64,000 nucleotides of DNA from Escherichia coli (GTDB lineage Bacteria; Pseudomonadota; Gammaproteobacteria; Enterobacterales; Enterobacteriaceae): assembly GCF_003334765.1 (NCBI RefSeq), contig NZ_QOWT01000008.1; one strand, written 5' to 3'. The notes beneath the pieces were generated by a model. It saw only the letters and a list, made by a program, of their open reading frames with translations. It was not told the DNA's origin and did no database searches. The translations under genes and the position numbers were made by a program. Positions within the stretch are counted from its first letter, which is position 1. Each line of letters begins with the position of its first letter. This document shows positions 13,004-59,449 of this stretch, one piece after another.

Positions 13004-13780
13004 ATGTCCGAAACAAAAAACGAACTTGAAGACCTGCTGGAAAAAGCAGCAACTGAACCGGCGCACCGCCCGGCCTTTTTCCGTACTCTACTGGAATCCA
13101 CCGTCTGGGTGCCTGGTACGGCGGCGCAGGGCGAGGCTGTGGTTGAAGATAGCGCGCTTGATTTACAGCACTGGGAAAAAGAAGACGGCACCAGCGTCAT
13201 TCCTTTTTTCACCTCGTTAGAAGCACTTCAACAGGCGGTTGAAGACGAACAGGCATTTGTCGTAATGCCCGTTCGCACGCTGTTTGAGATGACACTTGGC
13301 GAAACGCTCTTCCTTAATGCCAAACTGCCAACCGGTAAAGAATTTATGCCGCGTGAAATCAGTTTGTTGATTGGTGAAGAGGGAAATCCGCTGAGCAGCC
13401 AGGAAATCCTGGAAGGCGGTGAATCGCTGATATTATCGGAAGTCGCAGAGCCGCCAGCACAAATGATTGATTCACTCACCACCTTATTTAAAACCATTAA
13501 GCCGGTGAAGCGTGCTTTTATTTGTTCAATTAAAGAGAACGAAGAGGCACAGCCTAATTTACTTATTGGCATTGAAGCCGATGGTGATATCGAAGAAATT
13601 ATTCAGGCGACGGGAAGTGTAGCGACCGATACATTACCTGGCGATGAACCAATCGATATTTGTCAGGTGAAAAAAGGGGAAAAAGGAATTAGCCACTTTA
13701 TTACCGAACATATTGCGCCATTCTATGAACGTCGCTGGGGTGGTTTTTTGCGTGACTTTAAACAGAATCGGATAATCTAA
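13004..13780 (+). CDS. sseB: SseB family protein
   Basis: ORF track 12995..13780 (GTG); ATG at 13004 gives 258 aa. Confidence 0.85.
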   Translation: MSETKNELEDLLEKAATEPAHRPAFFRTLLESTVWVPGTAAQGEAVVEDSALDLQHWEKEDGTSVIPFFTSLEALQQAVEDEQAFVVMPVRTLFEMTLGETLFLNAKLPTGKEFMPREISLLIGEEGNPLSSQEILEGGESLILSEVAEPPAQMIDSLTTLFKTIKPVKRAFICSIKENEEAQPNLLIGIEADGDIEEIIQATGSVATDTLPGDEPIDICQVKKGEKGISHFITEHIAPFYERRWGGFLRDFKQNRII

Positions 13781-13802
13781 AATATGCCGCCCAAAGGGCG
13801 GC
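13779..13802 (-). terminator. intrinsic terminator hairpin (gccgccc-aaa-gggcggc) with U-run on the minus strand; ends the leftward transcript and abuts the sseB stop
   Basis: perfect 7-bp GC stem 13786-13802 followed on the minus strand by AUAUUUU. Confidence 0.45.
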
Positions 13803-13960
13803 ATTCGGGCTTACTTGCTGCTCTGAAGGTTGTTAACCACCAGTAAATTGTCGCCGGAGAGACTCCGGTTATTATTTACCTCGGTTAACAGCGCACCAGA
13901 AACAATAAGTACGATACAAAAGCACCGTATCTTCATTGTGCGGTCCATGCGAAGACCGCA

Positions 13961-14035
13961 TCACGACAGCACCACTGGCGATATTGCCGCGATAGCAAGC
14001 GCTGTGAAACACCTGCATTTACGGCCACGGAACAT
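13961..14035 (-). CDS. candidate small ORF (24 aa, MFRGRKCRCFTALAIAAISPVVLS) with basic N-terminus and hydrophobic tail; hypothetical
   Basis: ATG preceded by AGGAAAGG Shine-Dalgarno; lies ~45 nt downstream of a predicted leftward promoter (-10 TATTAT, 14088-14093); stop overlaps the ATG of a second mini-ORF (TGATG). Confidence 0.25.
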   Translation of the reverse strand: MFRGRKCRCFTALAIAAISPVVLS

Positions 14036-14063
14036 CCTTTCCTAAAGCCAGCGCCCGTTTGCG

Positions 14064-14258
14064 AGACGGCGGAAAGGGCCGCAGTGGATAATACACTAAC
14101 AGAACAATAATAACTCTCTTTTGCTTGACAAAAAGAGAGTTACTGGCGAGTATTGTCTCCGCTGAGACGCGCTTGCATTACTACGGTAATACAACCTGCT
14201 GGAAAGGCCGCGAACCGGACCAGCAACAAAAAACCGCCTGATTTTGGCGGTTTTTTGT
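14064..14258. repeat. intergenic module copy 1: promoter -10, AT-rich 10-bp perfect palindrome, conserved core, GC hairpin terminator
   Basis: direct repeat of 14388-14582 with identical blocks (acggcggaaagggcc; ttttgcttgacaaaaagagagttactgg; aacctgctggaaaggccgcgaacc) and a diverged centre. Confidence 0.7.
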
Positions 14259-14402
14259 TTTTTAAAGGAAAGTGAATTTACATGTTTAAGTAATATCTTT
14301 TACCGGTTAGAATTTTTAATTTTGAGCAGGATTTGTTTATATTTGTCTGAATTCGGACTAATAAGCCAGGTTATTTTATTACCGAACACGGCGGAAAGGG
14401 CC
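14099..14402 (-). ncRNA. ryfA: RyfA-like small RNA (~304 nt)
   Basis: sigma70 -10 TATTAT at 14410-14415 (minus) places the TSS at 14402; transcript ends after the palindrome actctcttttgcttgacaaaaagagagt plus U-rich tail near 14099; position between sseA and sseB matches my recollection of E. coli ryfA. Confidence 0.5.
14228..14258. terminator. bidirectional GC hairpin (ccgcc-tgatttt-ggcgg) flanked by A-run and T-run, internal to ryfA
   Basis: aaaaaaccgcctgattttggcggttttttg. Confidence 0.5.
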
Positions 14403-14582
14403 GGTGTCGATAATACGCTAAATAAACAATAATTACTCTCTTTTGCTTGACAAAAAGAGAGTTACTGGTGAGTATTGTTTTGCTGTGAAGCACCTGCGTT
14501 GCTCATGTAACACAAGTCAACCTGCTGGAAAGGCCGCGAACCAGACTAGCAATAAAAAACCGCCAAATTCGGCGGTTTTTTA
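14388..14582. repeat. intergenic module copy 2 (sseA 3' region), paralogous to 14064-14258
   Basis: same block structure as copy 1; hairpin stems conserved while loops differ. Confidence 0.7.
14554..14582. terminator. bidirectional intrinsic terminator downstream of sseA
   Basis: aaaaaaccgccaaattcggcggtttttt; stem ccgcc/ggcgg with U-runs on both strands. Confidence 0.6.
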
Positions 14583-14597
14583 TTGCCTGTAAAATAC

Positions 14598-15443
14598 TTA
14601 TTTCACTGGCTCAACCGGTAAATCTGCCCGCGCGCCCCATTCACTCCATGCGCCGTCGTACAGTTTCACGTTTGGCACATCCAGCGTAGCGAGTGCTAAC
14701 AAAACCACGGCTGCCGTTACACCAGAGCCGCAGCTGACGATAATTGGTTTGTCGTAGCTGACGCCGCGACCAAAAAATATCGCATCCAGTTCATCGGTCG
14801 TTTTTAGTTCGCCTTCGCGCACCAGTTCCGTCCACGGAACATTCAGTGCTCCGGGAATATGTCCGCGACGTAAACCTGGGCGAGGTTCATCAACTTCTGC
14901 GTTAAAACGTGCAGCCGGGCGGGCATCAATAATTTGCGCCGTATTTTCATGGCTTGCCAATAATACATCGGTTACTTTCACCACGGCTTCAGGATTAAAC
15001 GCGGCGTTAAACTCTCCTTCCGGCAGCTCTACTGCACCTTCTTCTAACAGCAGATCATCGCGCTGCCAGCCTGCAAGTCCACCCCCCAGAATCGACACTT
15101 TCTCTACACCAAAGGTGCGCAGCATCCACCATGCTCGTGGGGCTGAGAAAAGATTACCTTCGTCATAGACAATCAGGTGCTTATCCTGGTTAACGCCTAA
15201 TTCACGCATCGCCACGGCGAACGTTTCCGGGCGCGGCAGCATGTGCGGAAGCGGGGAAGTGTGATCAGAAAGCGCTTCGATATCAAAAAACACTGCGCCG
15301 GGAATATGTCCATTCAGATACTCCTGAGCAACGTTACGATCCTCCTGTCCAGGCGACGCCATGCGGGCATCGATAATCTGAATTTCCGGGTCATCAATAT
15401 GTTCGGCGAGCCAGTCGGCTCCTACAAACCATGTCGTGGACAT
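14598..15443 (-). CDS. sseA: 3-mercaptopyruvate sulfurtransferase
   Basis: ORF track 14598..15602; start at MSTTWFVGADW (281 aa); two rhodanese domains with active-site CGSGVTA. Confidence 0.9.
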   Translation of the reverse strand: MSTTWFVGADWLAEHIDDPEIQIIDARMASPGQEDRNVAQEYLNGHIPGAVFFDIEALSDHTSPLPHMLPRPETFAVAMRELGVNQDKHLIVYDEGNLFSAPRAWWMLRTFGVEKVSILGGGLAGWQRDDLLLEEGAVELPEGEFNAAFNPEAVVKVTDVLLASHENTAQIIDARPAARFNAEVDEPRPGLRRGHIPGALNVPWTELVREGELKTTDELDAIFFGRGVSYDKPIIVSCGSGVTAAVVLLALATLDVPNVKLYDGAWSEWGARADLPVEPVK

Positions 15444-15649
15444 AGGCATCTCCATTTTTGCCGGGGTTAGGCTAAATTGTCGGATGTTTAGTGAAAAGCG
15501 ACAAGCAAAAGAGGCTGATTTGGCTGTCTGAGCCACAATTCTCACTAAAATTCGGATTGTATGGGCGTGATACTGAATTACATAACGTAAATTCTCACGC
15601 ATAATAATTATTCGACGTTGCTAACGGGCCATTGTGGCAGGGATGAAAA

Positions 15650-18600
15650 ATGAAAAAGTTACGCGTAGCCGCCTGCATGCTAATGCTGGCGCTGGCAGGG
15701 TGCGACAACAACGATAACGCGCCAACAGCGGTGAAAAAAGATGCGCCTTCTGAAGTTACTAAAGCGGCCTCTTCAGAAAACGCGAGTTCAGCAAAACTCT
15801 CCGTGCCGGAGAGACAAAAACTGGCCCAACAGAGTGCCGGTAAGGTGCTGACATTGCTGGATCTCTCTGAAGTCCAACTTGATGGTGCAGCCACGCTGGT
15901 GCTGACGTTCTCCATCCCTCTCGACCCGGATCAGGATTTCTCACGCGTTATTCATGTCGTCGATAAAAAAAGCGGCAAAGTGGATGGTGCCTGGGAGCTG
16001 TCAGATAATCTTAAAGAGTTACGTTTACGCCACCTCGAACCGAAACGTGATTTGATCGTTACTATTGGCAAGGAGGTCAAAGCACTCAACAACGCAACCT
16101 TCAGTAAAGATTACGAAAAAACTATAACTACCCGCGACATCCAACCCAGCGTCGGTTTTGCCAGCCGTGGTTCGCTGCTGCCTGGCAAAGTCGTTGAAGG
16201 GCTGCCGGTAATGGCGCTCAACGTTAATAATGTCGATGTTAACTTCTTCCGCGTTAAGCCAGAATCTCTGCCAGCATTCATTAGCCAATGGGAATACCGC
16301 AATTCGCTGGCGAACTGGCAGTCAGACAAACTGCTGCAGATGGCGGATCTGGTCTACACCGGACGGTTTGATCTCAATCCTGCGCGTAACACCCGTGAAA
16401 AATTATTGCTGCCGCTGGGCGATATCAAACCGCTTCAGCAGGCGGGCGTGTATCTGGCTGTGATGAATCAGGCTGGACGTTACGATTACAGTAATCCCGC
16501 GACGCTGTTTACGTTAAGTGATATCGGCGTTTCAGCTCACCGTTATCACAATCGTCTGGATATCTTTACCCAAAGTCTGGAAAACGGCGCGGCCCAGCAA
16601 GGAATTGAAGTCTCTTTATTAAATGAGAAAGGGCAGACTCTGACTCAGGCAACCAGTGACGCTCAGGGGCATGTGCAGCTGGAAAATGATAAAAACGCGC
16701 ATTACTGTTGGCGCGTAAAGACGGTCAGACAACGCTACTCGATTTAAAACTTCCGGCGCTGGACTTAGCAGAATTTAACATTGCTGGCGCGCCAGGCTAT
16801 AGCAAACAGTTTTTCATGTTTGGCCCACGCGATCTTTATCGCCCAGGTGAAACGGTAATCCTCAATGGTTTGCTGCGTGATGCAGACGGTAAAGCGTTGC
16901 CCAATCAACCCATCAAGTTAGACGTGATTAAACCCGATGGGCAGGTACTCAGGAGCGTCGTTAGTCAGCCGGAGAATGGCCTCTACCACTTTACCTGGCC
17001 ACTCGATAGCAATGCGGCAACCGGTATGTGGCATATTCGCGCTAACACGGGCGATAATCAGTATCGGATGTGGGATTTCCACGTCGAAGATTTTATGCCA
17101 GAGCGCATGGCGCTGAATCTGACCGGTGAGAAAACCCCGCTAACGCCGAAAGATGAAGTGAAATTCTCCGTGGTGGGGTACTACCTGTATGGTGCACCTG
17201 CTAATGGTAATACTTTGCAAGGGCAACTTTTCCTGCGCCCACTGCGTGAAGCTGTGTCAGCCTTACCTGGTTTTGAATTCGGCGATATAGCTGCCGAAAA
17301 TCTTTCCCGCACGCTGGATGAAGTTCAGTTGACGCTGGATGATAAAGGGCGCGGCGAAGTTTCTACAGAAAGCCAGTGGAAGGAAACGCATTCCCCATTA
17401 CAGGTTATTTTCCAGGGTAGTTTGCTGGAATCGGGCGGTCGCCCGGTGACGCGCCGCGCTGAGCAGGCTATCTGGCCTGCCGATGCATTGCCGGGGATCC
17501 GTCCGCAGTTCGCCTCGAAATCGGTTTACGATTATCGTACTGACAGCACGGTGAAACAGCCCATTGTTGATGAAGGCAGTAACGCCGCTTTTGACATCGT
17601 TTATAGCGATGCGCAAGGCGTGAAAAAAGCCGTGTCGGGCTTGCAGGTGCGCCTGATTCGCGAACGCCGCGATTACTACTGGAACTGGTCAGAAGATGAA
17701 GGCTGGCAGTCACAGTTTGATCAAAAAGATCTGATCGAAAATGAACAAACTCTGGATCTGAAAGCGGACGAAACCGGCAAGGTCAGTTTTCCGGTAGAGT
17801 GGGGCGCTTATCGTCTGGAAGTCAAAGCGCCGAATGAAGCGGTCAGTAGTGTTCGTTTCTGGGCTGGCTATAGCTGGCAGGACAACAGCGACGGTAGCGG
17901 CGCAGTGCGACCCGACCGTGTCACGCTGAAACTGGATAAAGCCAGTTATCGCCCTGGCGACACCATTAAGTTGCATATCGCCGCGCCAACGGCGGGTAAA
18001 GGTTATGCGATGGTCGAGTCCAGTGAAGGGCCGCTGTGGTGGCAAGAGATTGATGTTCGGGCTCAAGGGCTGGATCTGACGATTCCGGTCGATAAAACCT
18101 GGAATCGTCATGATCTGTATTTAAGTACGCTGGTGGTACGTCCTGGCGATAAATCTCGCTCCGCGACGCCAAAACGCGCGGTTGGTGTGTTGCATCTGCC
18201 GCTTGGCGATGAAAACCGTCGCCTCGATCTGGCGCTGGAAACACCAGCAAAAATGCGTCCCAATCAACCATTAACCGTGAAAATTAAAGCCAGCACTAAA
18301 AATGGCGAGAAGCCTAAACAGGTGAATGTGCTGGTGTCTGCCGTTGATAGTGGTGTGCTGAATATTACTGACTACGTCACGCCAGATCCGTGGCAGGCGT
18401 TCTTTGGTCAGAAACGCTATGGCGCAGACATTTACGATATTTACGGTCAGGTTATTGAAGGTCAGGGGCGTCTGGCAGCTCTGCGTTTCGGTGGCGATGG
18501 TGATGAGCTGAAACGTGGTGGTAAACCGCCGGTCAATCACGTCAATATTGTCGTGCAGCAGGCGCTGCCGGTAACGCTCAACGAACAGGGCGAAGGCTCG

Positions 18601-20610
18601 GTTACACTGCCGATTGGCGATTTTAACGGTGAATTGCGCGTCATGGCGCAAGCCTGGACGGCAGATGACTTCGGTAGCAACGAAAGTAAAGTGATAGTTG
18701 CCGCACCGGTGATTGCTGAACTGAACATGCCGCGCTTTATGGCGAGTGGCGATACCTCGCGTCTGACGCTGGATATCACTAATCTTACCGATAAACCGCA
18801 AAAACTGAACGTTGCCCTGACCGCCAGTGGTTTGCTTGAACTGGTCAGCGATTCACCCGCAGCCGTTGAATTAGCGCCAGGTGTGCGTACTACGCTGTTT
18901 ATCCCGGTGCGAGCATTGCCGGGTTATGGCGATGGAGAAATTCAGGCCACCATTAGCGGGTTAGCGTTACCGGGTGAAACCGTTGCCGATCAGCATAAGC
19001 AGTGGAAAATCGGCGTCCGTCCGGCGTTCCCGGCACAAACGGTTAATTACGGTACGGCGTTACAGCCTGGTGAGACATGGGCGATTCCGGCGGATGGATT
19101 GCAAAACTTCTCGCCTGTTACGCTGGAAGGGCAATTGTTGTTGAGCGGCAAACCACCGCTGAACATCGCACGTTATATCAAAGAGTTAAAAGCGTATCCG
19201 TACGGCTGTCTTGAGCAAACCGCCAGCGGCCTGTTTCCGTCACTTTATACCAACGCAGCCCAACTGCAGGCGTTGGGCATCAAAGGCGACAGTGATGAGA
19301 AACGCCGTGCATCGGTCGATATCGGCATTTCCCGTTTGCTGCAAATGCAACGTGATAACGGCGGCTTTGCGCTGTGGGATAAAAACGGTGACGAAGAGTA
19401 CTGGCTGACGGCTTACGTGATGGATTTCCTGGTCCGCGCAGGCGAACAGGGTTACAGCGTGCCGACAGACGCCATTAACCGGGGTAATGAGCGTCTGCTG
19501 CGCTATTTACAAGATCCGGGCATGATGTCGATCCCGTACGCGGATAATCTCAAAGCCAGTAAATTCGCCGTACAGTCTTACGCTGCGCTGGTGTTGGCCC
19601 GTCAGCAAAAGGCTCCGCTGGGTGCGCTGCGTGAAATCTGGGAGCATCGTGCAGATGCCGCTTCTGGTTTACCGCTGCTGCAACTTGGCGTTGCGCTGAA
19701 AACCATGGGTGATGCGACGCGTGGTGAAGAAGCGATTGCGCTGGCGCTGAAAACGCCGCGTAATAGTGATGAGCGGATATGGCTGGGTGATTACGGTAGT
19801 TCACTGCGCGACAACGCGTTAATGCTCTCCTTGCTGGAAGAAAATAAACTGCTACCCGATGAGCAGTACACTTTGCTGAACACACTTTCGCAGCAGGCGT
19901 TTGGTGAACGCTGGCTATCGACGCAGGAAAGTAACGCGTTGTTCCTGGCTGCCCGTACGATTCAGGATTTACCCGGTAAATGGCAGGCGCAAACCTCTTT
20001 CTCAGCTGAGCAGCTGACAGGCGAGAAAGCGCAAAACAGCAATCTGAATAGCGATCAACTTGTCACCTTGCAGGTGAGCAACAGTGGCGATCAGCCGTTA
20101 TGGTTGCGTATGGATGCCAGCGGTTATCCGCAATCCGCACCTTTACCGGCGAACAATGTGCTGCAAATCGAGCGTCATATTCTTGGTACTGATGGTAAGA
20201 GCAAATCGCTGGACTCGTTACGTAGCGGCGATCTGGTGCTGGTGTGGTTGCAGGTAAAAGCCAGTAACAGCGTGCCGGATGCGTTAGTCGTGGATCTGCT
20301 GCCTGCGGGTCTGGAACTGGAAAACCAGAATCTGGCGAACGGTAGCGCCAGCCTGGAGCAAAGTGGTGGCGAAGTGCAGAACTTACTGAACCAGATGCAG
20401 CAGGCGAGCATTAAGCACATTGAGTTCCGTGACGATCGCTTTGTGGCGGCGGTTGCCGTTGATGAATACCAACCGGTAACGCTGGTGTATCTGGCGCGGG
20501 CGGTGACGCCGGGAACGTATCAGGTACCGCAACCGATGGTGGAATCAATGTATGTTCCCCAATGGCGGGCGACCGGCGCGGCTGAAGATCTGCTGATTGT
20601 CAGACCGTAA
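15650..20610 (+). pseudogene. yfhM: alpha-2-macroglobulin family lipoprotein YfhM, split by an apparent 1-nt frameshift near 16699-16702
   Basis: two adjacent same-strand ORFs (15650..16747 and 16708..20610) overlap by 40 nt in different frames; first has lipoprotein signal (LAGC), second has thioester motif GCLEQ; combined length plus one base gives 1653 codons. Confidence 0.7.
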
Positions 20611-22923
20611 ATGCCTCGCTTGTTAACCAAACGCGGCTGCTGGATAACGTTGGCAGCCGCGCCCTTTCTCCTTTTTCTTGCAGCGTGGGGAGCAGATAAA
20701 CTCTGGCCTCTACCGCTGCATGAAGTCAATCCCGCACGAGTGGTCGTGGCGCAGGATGGTACGCCGCTCTGGCGCTTCGCCGATGCTGACGGCATCTGGC
20801 GTTATCCGGTAACAATCGAAGATGTTTCTCCACGTTACCTTGAAGCGCTGATCAATTATGAAGATCGCTGGTTCTGGAAGCATCCGGGGGTGAATCCATT
20901 CTCGGTGGCGCGCGCAGCATGGCAAGATCTCACTTCGGGACGGGTTATTTCCGGTGGCAGCACGCTCACTATGCAGGTTGCTCGTCTGCTTGATCCTCAC
21001 CCCAAAACATTTGGCGGCAAAATTCGCCAGCTCTGGCGCGCGTTGCAACTGGAATGGCATCTGTCTAAGCGTGAAATTCTGACCTTGTATCTTAACCGCG
21101 CTCCGTTTGGCGGTACGTTGCAGGGGATCGGTGCGGCAAGTTGGGCTTATCTCGGAAAATCGCCTGCGAATTTAAGCTATTCCGAGGCGGCAATGCTGGC
21201 GGTTTTGCCGCAAGCGCCCAGCCGTCTTCGCCCGGATCGTTGGCCGGAGCGTGCCGAAGCCGCGCGTAATAAAGTGCTCGAACGGATGGCCGTGCAAGGT
21301 GTGTGGTCCCGTGAGCAGGTAAAAGAGTCAAGGGAAGAACCCATCTGGCTGGCCCCCCGACAAATGCCGCAACTGGCACCGCTGTTTTCGCGCATGATGC
21401 TCGGTAAAAGCAAAAGCGACAAAATCACTACTACGTTGGATGCCGGTCTTCAACGACGTCTGGAAGAACTGGCGCAAAACTGGAAAGGGCGGTTGCCACC
21501 GCGCAGCTCACTGGCGATGATCGTGGTTGATCATACCGATATGCGTGTTCGCGGCTGGGTGGGATCGGTTGATCTCAACGATGATTCACGCTTTGGTCAT
21601 GTTGATATGGTCAATTCGATCCGATCGCCAGGATCAGTGCTCAAACCGTTTGTTTATGGTCTGGCGCTGGATGAAGGCTTGATCCACCCGGCATCACTGC
21701 TGCAAGACGTCCCCCGGCGCACCGGTGATTATCGACCAGGTAACTTTGATAGCGGTTTTCATGGCCCGATCAGCATGAGCGAGGCGCTGGTGCGCTCGCT
21801 GAACTTACCTGCTGTGCAGGTGCTGGAAGCCTATGGACCGAAACGGTTTGCGGCAAAGTTACGCAATGTTGGATTGCCGTTATATTTGCCCAACGGTGCT
21901 GCGCCGAATCTTTCACTCATTCTCGGCGGCGCTGGTGCAAAACTGGAAGATATGGCGGCAGCGTATACCGCGTTTGCTCGCCACGGCAAGGCAGGCAAAT
22001 TGCGCTTACAGCCTGACGATCCGCTGCTTGAACGGCCTTTAATGTCGTCGGGGGCGGCGTGGATCATTCGCCGGATTATGGCTGATGAAGCGCAACCCTT
22101 GCCGGATAGTGCCTTGCCGCGCGTCGCCCCACTGGCATGGAAAACGGGCACCAGCTATGGCTATCGTGACGCCTGGGCGATTGGGGTTAACGCTCGCTAT
22201 GTCATTGGGATCTGGACTGGCAGACCGGACGGCACGCCCGTTGTTGGTCAGTTTGGCTTTGCCAGTGCCGTACCATTGTTGAATCAGGTCAATAATATCT
22301 TACTGTCGCGCAGTGCGAATCTGCCGGAAGACCCGCGCCCGAACTCAGTCACTCGTGGCGTTATCTGCTGGCCGGGCGGACAGTCTTTGCCGGAAGGTGA
22401 CGGTAACTGTCGCCGCCGCCTGGCAACCTGGCTGCTGGACGGGAGTCAGCCGCCAACTCTATTACTGCCGGAGCAGGAAGGCATTAATGGCATTCGTTTC
22501 CCCATCTGGCTGGATGAAAATGGCAAACGTGTTGCCGCTGATTGCCCGCAAGCGCGACAAGAAATGATAAATGTCTGGCCGCTACCGCTGGAACCCTGGC
22601 TGCCCGCATCAGAACGTCGCGCTGTGCGCTTACCACCGGCCTCGACAAGTTGCCCGCCATACGGTCACGATGCCCAGCTCCCGCTGCAGCTGACAGGCGT
22701 TCGCGATGGCGCGATTATTAAACGTTTACCGGGCGCAGCGGAAGCGACTTTGCCGTTGCAATCAAGTGGAGGGGCAGGTGAACGCTGGTGGTTTCTGAAT
22801 GGCGAACCGTTAACTGAACGCGGGCGCAACGTGACCCTGCATTTGACGGATAAAGGTGATTATCAATTGCTGGTGATGGATGACGTGGGGCAAATCGCGA
22901 CAGTGAAATTTGTCATGCAATAG
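20611..22923 (+). CDS. pbpC: penicillin-binding protein 1C (transglycosylase / transpeptidase-like)
   Basis: 770-aa ORF starting immediately after the yfhM stop (taaatg); glycosyltransferase motifs. Confidence 0.9.
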   Translation: MPRLLTKRGCWITLAAAPFLLFLAAWGADKLWPLPLHEVNPARVVVAQDGTPLWRFADADGIWRYPVTIEDVSPRYLEALINYEDRWFWKHPGVNPFSVARAAWQDLTSGRVISGGSTLTMQVARLLDPHPKTFGGKIRQLWRALQLEWHLSKREILTLYLNRAPFGGTLQGIGAASWAYLGKSPANLSYSEAAMLAVLPQAPSRLRPDRWPERAEAARNKVLERMAVQGVWSREQVKESREEPIWLAPRQMPQLAPLFSRMMLGKSKSDKITTTLDAGLQRRLEELAQNWKGRLPPRSSLAMIVVDHTDMRVRGWVGSVDLNDDSRFGHVDMVNSIRSPGSVLKPFVYGLALDEGLIHPASLLQDVPRRTGDYRPGNFDSGFHGPISMSEALVRSLNLPAVQVLEAYGPKRFAAKLRNVGLPLYLPNGAAPNLSLILGGAGAKLEDMAAAYTAFARHGKAGKLRLQPDDPLLERPLMSSGAAWIIRRIMADEAQPLPDSALPRVAPLAWKTGTSYGYRDAWAIGVNARYVIGIWTGRPDGTPVVGQFGFASAVPLLNQVNNILLSRSANLPEDPRPNSVTRGVICWPGGQSLPEGDGNCRRRLATWLLDGSQPPTLLLPEQEGINGIRFPIWLDENGKRVAADCPQARQEMINVWPLPLEPWLPASERRAVRLPPASTSCPPYGHDAQLPLQLTGVRDGAIIKRLPGAAEATLPLQSSGGAGERWWFLNGEPLTERGRNVTLHLTDKGDYQLLVMDDVGQIATVKFVMQ

Positions 22924-23071
22924 TCTGTTTTGTCCCTGATTGTTGCTAAAACTCATTTTATTTAAAAAAAATGTTACCTTCATCAATAGTCAACGGCCCT
23001 GTTGCTCATTATAATCCGCGCCATCTCGTACGCTGGTACAGACAACAACAGAACAATTTACAGAGGTAAAA

Positions 23072-57230: not shown

Positions 57231-57772
57231 AGCTGCTCCTTAGCCACCAGCAGTACATCTGTATCGTCGTTGATCAGCGTCGCGCGTTGTTTGCATTCCG
57301 GGCAGACGCTCGCTTGCGCCCACAACATTTCGCGGTTTTGTGGCGCATTTTGTTGCTGTGCTAACAATTCAGCAGCCAGTGCGATGGTTTTTTGCGGGGC
57401 AAACGGGCGTTCGCAACGGCTGCAACGTTGTAGATGGAACGTCGCGCGGGTATAGAGATCGGCTTTATTGGTGACGGTCAGTTCAAAGTTATTGGTAAGC
57501 TGGATGGCTCTGGTCGGGCACACTTCTTCACAACGTCCGCAGTAAATACAACGCCCCAGATAGAGCTGCCAGGTGCGCGAATTTTGCTGGTCGTCGGTCT
57601 GGATAGTCAGCGCATTTGCCGGACAAGCACAGGCGCAGGCACCGCAGGCAATACATTGGCTGGGCATCAGGTCCGGTTTTCCGCGAAAGCCAGGGCTGAC
57701 CTCCAGTGGCGCGAAGGGATATTTCACCGTCGCGGTTCCGGCGCGCATAATAGTTTTCAGTAACTTCAGCAT
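57227..57772 (-). CDS. hyfH: hydrogenase-4 ferredoxin-like subunit HyfH
   Basis: 181-aa ORF with two CxxCxxCxxxCP motifs. Confidence 0.9.
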
Positions 57773-57781
57773 CTTCTGTCC

Positions 57782-59449
57782 TTACTTCAGCGGCGAACGG
57801 TTACGATCAATGCCGTAGCGTTCGATCTCTTTATACGGCACGGTTTTTGACTGGCGCTTGCGCACATCTACCAGCGTCACACGGTCGGTACAGGAGTAGC
57901 AGGGATCAAGGCTACCGATAATCAGCGGTGCGTCAGAAACGGTATTGCCGCGCAGCATGTAACGCAACACCGGCCAGTTGGCGTAGGTGGCGGCACGGCA
58001 GCGCCAGCGGAACAATTTTTGGTTATCACCGAGCATGCTCCAGTGCACGTCTTCACCGCGTGGCGCTTCAACAAAGCCCAGCGCGAATGCGTGAGGTTTA
58101 TAGCTAAAGCCTTCGGTCAGCAGTGGGGTATCCGGCATGTTGTCGAGGGCAAATTCCAGCATTGCCAGCGAATCAAACGTCTCTTTGACACGGACCATCA
58201 CGCGGGAGAAAACATCGCCGCCGGTAAAGGTAAACAGTGTTTTTGGAATATTGCCGTAGTCGGCGTAGGGGTGATCAAAGCGCAAATCACGGGCGATTTG
58301 TCGGTCGAGAATGCCAATGCCCTGAGTGCGTTGTTCCATATTCGGCGTAGCAAGCAGCATCTCTACCAGCTCCGACACGTCGGCGCGCATCTCGCGCACC
58401 AGTTTCAGCGTTTGCAGACGTTGCTCTTTGAGAATATCGCGGCGAACACCACCAATCAGATTCAGACCGTAGGTTTTACGCGACCCGATCAGCAATTCCG
58501 CCATCGTCATCGACTTTTCCCGCACGCGGAAAAATTGCATAAAGCCGGTATCAAAACCAACGAAATGGCAGGAGAGGCCAAGGTTAAGCAAATGACTGTG
58601 TAGCCGTTCGACTTCCAGCAGAATCGAGCGAATAGTATGTGCTCGTTGCGGCACCTCAATCCCCAGTGCATTTTCAACCGAATTGGTATAGGCCACACTG
58701 TGGGCAAAACCGCAAATCCCACACACGCGGTCCGATAAGAAGGTCACTTCGTTGTAGCCCATCCGCGTTTCTGCCAGTTTCTCCATGCCGCGATGGACAT
58801 AAAACAGGCGGTAATCAGCATCGACAATTTGCTCGCCATCCACAAACAAGCGGAAGTGACCCGGTTCATCGGAGGTGATATGCAGCGGGCCGACAGGGAT
58901 CACCCGCGCATCGCTGTTGCCCTCATTGATAAACGGATACGTTTCGGAATCAGTCGTCGGTTCAGGGCGCAGTCGATAATCCATCGCATCTTTGCGCAGC
59001 GGATGCATATCTTCCGGCCAGTCATCGGGCAACACCAGGCGACGCTGATCCGGCAGGCCAACCGGAATCAGCCCGTACATATCGCGAATTTCTCGCTCGC
59101 CCCAGACCGCGGCAGGGACGCGCGGTGTGACTGACGGAAACTCCCGACTGTCGGCATCGACCAGCGCCTTCACCACAATCCAGCATTTTTCGGCCCCTTC
59201 CATTGAAAGGGCATAATAAACCGCGTAATGACCGTTAAGTGTCCGCTCGTCGTTGCCAAACAGGACCGGAAGCCAGCCATCATGTTGATAATAAAGATAC
59301 TGTACAACGTCAGGCAGCAGATTGATTTTCACCGCAATGGTGACCTGTTCAGGCGTTTGTCGCTCTTCATCCAGCACCGCGCCGGGGAACTGCGTTTTCA
59401 GGGCGGCGAGAATCGCTTCGCCACGATTTGACGATGAATTAACGTTCAC
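57782..59449 (-). CDS. hyfG: hydrogenase-4 [NiFe] large subunit HyfG
   Basis: ORF track 57782..59494; start at in-frame GTG ([11 protein letters not shown], 555 aa); [10 protein letters not shown] and DPCYSCTDR Ni-binding motifs. Confidence 0.9.

Follow-up and report, generated by a model that had tools for sequence, protein, structure and literature searches.

A one-base deletion in yfhM and a probable inherited pseudogene in a lineage of Escherichia coli

In the stretch of E. coli DNA analysed here (64,000 nucleotides, hereafter the window), the alpha-2-macroglobulin gene yfhM is laid out as two overlapping open reading frames on the + strand. The original prediction ascribed this arrangement to a one-nucleotide frameshift and left two readings side by side, a strain-specific pseudogene that really exists or a mistake of sequencing or assembly. 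The locus thus raises the question of whether the break belongs to the organism or to its assembly, and whether any full-length YfhM could still be made from the split gene. To answer it, we located the break and described the products, asked where else the same junction occurs, and considered how translation might bypass it and what it might mean for the adjacent gene pbpC.

The frame break and the products of the split gene

The open reading frame list gives a 365-residue frame opening with ATG and an overlapping 1300-residue frame opening with TTG (Table 1). In the frame translations the 5' frame ends in LENDKNAHYCWRVKTVRQRYSI followed by a stop codon, and the 3' frame reads ALLLARKDGQTTLLDLKLPALDL; the split and the translated strings of the original prediction were both reproduced in this way. 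An alignment with MG1655, the comparison with a reference yfhM that had been called for, showed a single 1-nt gap, with K-12 AACGCGGCATT standing against AACGCGCATT in the window. The lone G at 16699 corresponds to a GG pair in K-12, and the missing G at 16699/16700 matches exactly the predicted site and the proposed repair (gcggca for gcgca). When the G was put back, a single frame of 1653 residues was obtained, which is the length expected for the intact gene, with no differences from K-12 YfhM. The deletion lies in a two-base GG run and not in a homopolymer. The native frame of the 3' part is open already from 16693, and the TTG at 16708 is only the first start-type codon in it. Translation from the native start runs for 15 out-of-frame codons after the break before it reaches a TAA, giving 350 native YfhM residues followed by an out-of-frame tail (HYCWRVKTVRQRYSI).

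Table 1. Features of the yfhM-pbpC region. Positions are those of the window; domain boundaries are residue numbers.
Feature	Position	Strand	Details
Candidate sigma-70-type promoter	15577..15605	+	ATTACA-17-CATAAT upstream of yfhM; consensus match only
Lipoprotein signal peptide	15650..15703	+	Translation MKKLRVAACMLMLALAGCDNN; lipobox LAGC, Cys18, Asp at +2
5' yfhM fragment	15650..16747	+	365 codons; bMG1 59-163, bMG2 169-287, bMG3 289-350 of 289-381 (Pfam)
Dual-open stretch	16693..16744	+	17 codons; sole place where a -1 slip could give full-length YfhM
1-nt deletion site	16699..16700	+	K-12 ACGCGGCA, window ACGCGCA; codon 350/351, inside bMG3
Premature TAA stop from the frameshift	16745..16747	+	From the open reading frame list and translation
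3' yfhM remnant	16708..20610	+	1300 codons; no differences from K-12 residues 354-1653
pbpC (penicillin-binding protein 1C)	20611..22923	+	Intact; no nucleotide differences from K-12

We compared the two fragments with the features of the alpha-2-macroglobulin family. The translation of the 5' fragment begins with a lipoprotein signal peptide, MKKLRVAACMLMLALAGC, in which the lipobox cysteine is Cys18 in LAGC. An Asp at position +2 after the lipobox Cys is an inner-membrane retention residue. ECAM, the periplasmic alpha-2-macroglobulin of E. coli that yfhM encodes, has been described as anchored in the inner membrane (PMC4498604). Matches of the 365-residue product to the ECAM structures in the PDB (4rtd, 4ziq, 4zjg and 5a42) end at residue 351. 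The 3' remnant carries MG2, bMG5, bMG6, the bait-region domain, A2M, the thioester domain, CUB and bMG10; of the domains named here, bMG1, bMG2, bMG3, MG2 and bMG5 come from a Pfam scan, and bMG6, A2M_BRD, A2M, TED_complement, CUB_A2MG and bMG10 from the precomputed Pfam record for an identical 1300-residue product. The MG series and the bait-region, thioester, CUB and C-terminal MG domains are therefore all present in the DNA, split over two frames. The CXEQ thioester motif is present as CLEQ at residue 1187 of the restored protein (nucleotides 19207-19218), where the original prediction had placed it near 19210, and this is the position of Cys1187 and Gln1190 in ECAM (PMC4498604). What the window lacks is a continuous frame in which the membrane anchor, the bait region and the thioester domain are joined. 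Because the frame breaks at codon 350/351 and stops at 16745-16747, we regard yfhM here as a pseudogene of the type I alpha-2-macroglobulin family and not as a functional member.

From the native start, the expected product would be an inner-membrane lipoprotein stub of 365 residues and about 38 kDa. It would comprise bMG1, bMG2 and about two thirds of the bMG3 sandwich, and would lack the C-terminal MG domain. Protease trapping requires both bait cleavage and the thioester (PMC4498604), and since the stub would contain neither the bait region nor the CLEQ thioester domain, it should be unable to trap proteases. Useful levels of translation are improbable for the 3.9-kb remnant, which in any case would have no export signal. 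No further defects were found in the remnant or in pbpC in the window. This absence of further decay in the sequence fits a very recent event, and would also be compatible with selection still acting on a protein that the cell continues to make. In one carrier, a metagenome contig from ENA (L011), a Mu-like prophage lies inside the remnant at about window position 19152, suggesting that the remnant is dispensable at least in that sequence. Spanning 13503-21098 of the contig, the prophage encodes, among others, Mu transposase A and B, Kil and Gam. Other short N-terminal YfhM products fall into the same cluster as the 365-residue protein, one of 346 residues (WMI91418.1, on a 4.81 Mb contig) and one of 359 residues (on a 4.61 Mb contig), which suggests independent truncations in other E. 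coli strains.

Inherited allele or assembly error

A 601-base query around the site was compared with the complete RefSeq genomes of E. coli, and yfhM ("alpha2-macroglobulin") was matched in all 5426 of them, nearly all matches covering 602 bases in the record instead of 601. The same genomes were searched with a junction-spanning 61-mer and later with a 31-mer, for which megablast reports only genomes that contain the junction. The 31-mer was found in three genomes, namely H3 (Mexico, faeces), HSP425 (Brazil, urine) and AF58 (UK, blood culture), and the site is uninterrupted in the other 5423. In all three carriers PGAP labels yfhM a "frameshifted" pseudogene (AOY60_RS17265 in H3, ACQ2G9_RS08990 in HSP425 and AC9VTJ_RS23500 in AF58). 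Considering that 4-5 SNPs over 50 kb separate the window from each of them, it represents a fourth, independent carrier sequence. Beyond complete genomes, the exact 365-residue product was found in 361 public contigs and the exact 1300-residue product in 327 (NCBI, ENA, JGI/IMG and Logan), and the index of a large protein collection lists the 365-residue product in 513 blocks. The split pair has also been deposited from E. coli KTE161, as ELF23564.1 ("hypothetical protein") and ELF23563.1 ("alpha-2-macroglobulin").

These occurrences bear directly on the suspicion of a sequencing or assembly error, according to which consensus calling dropped one G although the isolate has the GG pair and an unbroken yfhM. 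One-base indels are the commonest assembly mistake, and elsewhere the window equals genomes with an intact yfhM, for example SHP24 over 25 kb. However, the same junction occurs in three further complete genomes and in 361 contigs from four repositories, and the affected site is a two-base run, not a homopolymer. The ENA metagenome scaffold L009 moreover matches the window at every one of 21,098 bases, among them the SNP 22964A, which is absent from the compared complete genomes. A systematic artefact would be spread over the species, whereas the junction is restricted to one haplotype and is not scattered across the 5426 genomes, which disfavours such an artefact. An error peculiar to the assembly of the window is very unlikely too, as it would need to coincide base for base with an allele already known to circulate. 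We therefore hold an error of either kind to be extremely improbable, and consider it highly probable that the frameshift is a real, vertically inherited loss-of-function allele in which one G of the GG pair at codon 350/351 was lost. Thus the first of the two readings offered originally stands, supported by the three genomes, the 361 contigs and the L009 scaffold, and only its wording needs amending, from strain-specific to lineage-specific.

The carriers share one near-identical haplotype, differing by 1-5 SNPs per 50 kb among themselves and from SHP24, in which yfhM is intact. IAL7250 is, like SHP24, among their nearest relatives with an intact gene. The comparison covered about 114 kb for H3, HSP425 and SHP24 (the window region plus 50 kb past window position 1) and the window region alone for AF58. 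Between SHP24 and the window, the first 25 kb show no mismatch and one gap, and positions 14002-64000 show four SNPs and that gap. Past window position 1, the further 50 kb show one SNP between H3 and SHP24 and four between H3 and HSP425. The derived markers form a consistent nested series: every carrier has the frameshift, HSP425, AF58, L010 and L011 also have 11264A, and HSP425 and AF58 have a hyfH deletion in addition. Judged from these sequences, the markers fit a single recent origin followed by spread, the SNPs being too few for a tree or for proof of monophyly. The deletion would have arisen recently and most likely once, on a K-12-like haplotype of phylogroup A type, and would now tag a small, widely distributed lineage. 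No MLST locus lies within the window.

Several other differences were recorded along the haplotype. A length difference of 91 nt that separates H3 and HSP425 from the window was considered as a conflicting character and rejected, because it reflects the copy number of a tandem REP-type repeat and is too unstable. The repeat lies between trmJ and iscR (5445-5629) as two tandem 91-nt units, overlapping a match to Rfam naRNA4 (CssrE) at 5507-5578; SHP24 matches the window in copy number, and H3 and HSP425 have one copy fewer. The hyfH deletion of HSP425 and AF58 is in frame and removes 162 bp (384 versus 546 nt, "4Fe-4S binding protein"); it is found neither in the window nor in H3, and the feature was recorded at 6391-6774 of the sequences L007 and L008, around window positions 57287-57439. 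At 22964, 41 nt past the pbpC stop, the window has A, as does L009, and all compared complete genomes have T; this position closely precedes the best promoter-like match ahead of ndk (TAGTCA-17-TATAAT, 22987-23015). At 59335 the window has C and the four compared genomes have T, which on the gene strand changes codon 39 of hyfG from Thr to Ala. Between sseB and sseA, Rfam matches were found to ryfA (timP mRNA; 13779-14082, - strand) and IS128 (14214-14422, - strand). Within this intergenic region, the segments at about 14066-14256 and 14388-14581, each of roughly 195 nt, share 83% sequence identity, which suggests a local duplication of a small toxin or sRNA locus.

Ribosomal slippage and re-initiation

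A deletion in the DNA need not silence the gene if ribosomes bypass it, and yfhM might still be expressed by a -1 slip within 16693-16744, altering at most 17 residues, or by re-initiation at TTG 16708 or ATG 16816. Both frames are open over 17 codons, and the A-rich T-AAA-AAC at 16690-16696 is an imperfect slippery motif; a slip at AAC would read DKN-R-ALLL in place of the native DKN-A-ALLL, a single substitution. In some of the E. coli proteins used for testing in one study, non-programmed -1 suppression of one-base deletions reached an aggregate of 1-10% (PMC10861913), and a trace of near-native YfhM may therefore be made. The lack of further decay in the remnant in the window would also accord with a recoded or split gene. 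Yet no canonical X XXY YYZ heptamer was found in the overlap; the best candidate, T AAA AAC, has a mismatched X (T) and AAC instead of AAG as its A-site codon. No stimulatory RNA structure was found downstream either, the segment 16697-16790 folding less stably (-17.6 kcal/mol) than its shuffled versions, which average -21.6 (z = +1.47). Nor is the frame break conserved among homologues: with the junction in only three of the 5426 complete genomes and a continuous frame in the rest, there is no selection for recoding here. Programmed -1 frameshifting was rejected on these three grounds, i.e., conservation, the non-canonical heptamer and the low stability of the RNA.

Re-initiation fares no better. 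The absence of a visible Shine-Dalgarno sequence at TTG 16708, pointed out in the original prediction, was borne out when the in-frame starts were inspected, as none of those past the break, including ATG 16816, is preceded by a Shine-Dalgarno-like sequence. A protein started there would also be without the signal peptide and lipobox, and would remain in the cytoplasm. Against a recoded or split gene stands, in addition, the prophage tolerated inside the remnant in L011. We thus consider continued expression of yfhM by either route very improbable, and the reading of yfhM as an inherited pseudogene is retained below.

Consequences for pbpC and relation to known systems

The pbpC gene follows in the same orientation, and its ATG abuts the yfhM stop in the sequence TAAATG at 20608-20613, the junction that had been described from the sequence alone. 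The pairing of yfhM with pbp1C has been described (PMC4498604). No obvious Shine-Dalgarno sequence precedes pbpC. From sseA to inside pbpC, the only promoter-like site on the + strand is the candidate upstream of yfhM, and the number of matches is not above that in shuffled sequence. An internal promoter for pbpC was not found, there being no sigma-70-like match on the + strand within yfhM in a scan whose matches do not exceed those in shuffled sequence. Four short C-rich windows resembling Rho-utilisation sites were noted in the remnant (18193-18321, 18747-18832, 19186-19274 and 19812-19889); their density is lower in the remnant than in the translated N-terminal part, and G exceeds C along most of the remnant. 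With the frameshift, ribosomes would stop 3.86 kb upstream of pbpC, translational coupling would be lost and Rho-dependent termination would become possible. Where pbpC begins, at the end of yfhM, neither a ribosome-binding site nor a promoter belonging to pbpC itself is obvious, and for this reason expression of the gene may be lowered. The original prediction had raised a polar effect on pbpC, and from the sequence it is plausible that PBP1C is reduced through the lost coupling, possibly with Rho-dependent polarity.

The allele is a known one in the sense that it is an ordinary lineage-specific pseudogene, already present in public databases and labelled "frameshifted" by PGAP. A literature search on yfhM returned no paper describing this allele, and searches on KTE161, HSP425, scaffold ROBE23 and sample SAMEA112438531 returned nothing; for diabetic-foot isolates, one paper lists, without details, a stop-gain affecting "putative lipoprotein YfhM". 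For annotation, the two frames should be merged into one frameshifted yfhM pseudogene, as some GenBank records list them as separate "putative protease inhibitor" genes. Acting with PBP1C, YfhM has been postulated to shield the envelope from host proteases in vivo (PMC4498604). The lineage offers a naturally occurring yfhM null allele with near-isogenic intact relatives (SHP24, four SNPs over 50 kb), which could be used for testing this still-postulated role in envelope defence. Because the carriers come from faeces, urine and blood, yfhM appears to be dispensable for colonisation and invasive infection in the carrier background. A bolder proposal, which we regard as very unlikely, is that the lineage is a natural double knock-down of the proposed YfhM-PbpC "trap and repair" module, the loss of YfhM and a polar reduction of PbpC being tolerated or even favoured in human-associated E. 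coli, or else that a -1 slip of a few percent within 16693-16744 supplies a low level of near-native, exported YfhM. If either were true, the strains would be a ready-made in vivo test of a bacterial alpha-2-macroglobulin.

The window can be set beside three known cases. The programmed -1 signal of E. coli dnaX consists of A AAA AAG with an upstream Shine-Dalgarno sequence and a downstream hairpin. The window resembles dnaX in its overlapping frames and in the A-rich run at the start of the overlap, but differs from it in that the break is not conserved, the heptamer is imperfect and no stable structure lies downstream. With the pseudogenes of H3, HSP425 and AF58 and the frame pair of KTE161, the window shares the deletion junction and the 365- and 1300-residue products; it differs in having 22964A and 59335C, neither of which occurs in H3, HSP425 or AF58, and it lacks the 162-bp hyfH deletion and the 11264A of the HSP425/AF58 branch. 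Compared with YfhM/ECAM of K-12 (WP_000736312.1; PDB 4rtd, 4ziq and 5a42), a type I thioester-containing protein, it has the same locus, sseA-yfhM-pbpC-ndk, and after restoration of the G its 1653 codons are identical, with the same lipobox, MG domains, bait-region domain and CLEQ. As it stands, however, the window is one G short at codon 350/351, and its native start encodes only residues 1-350 of the K-12 protein and a 15-residue tail.
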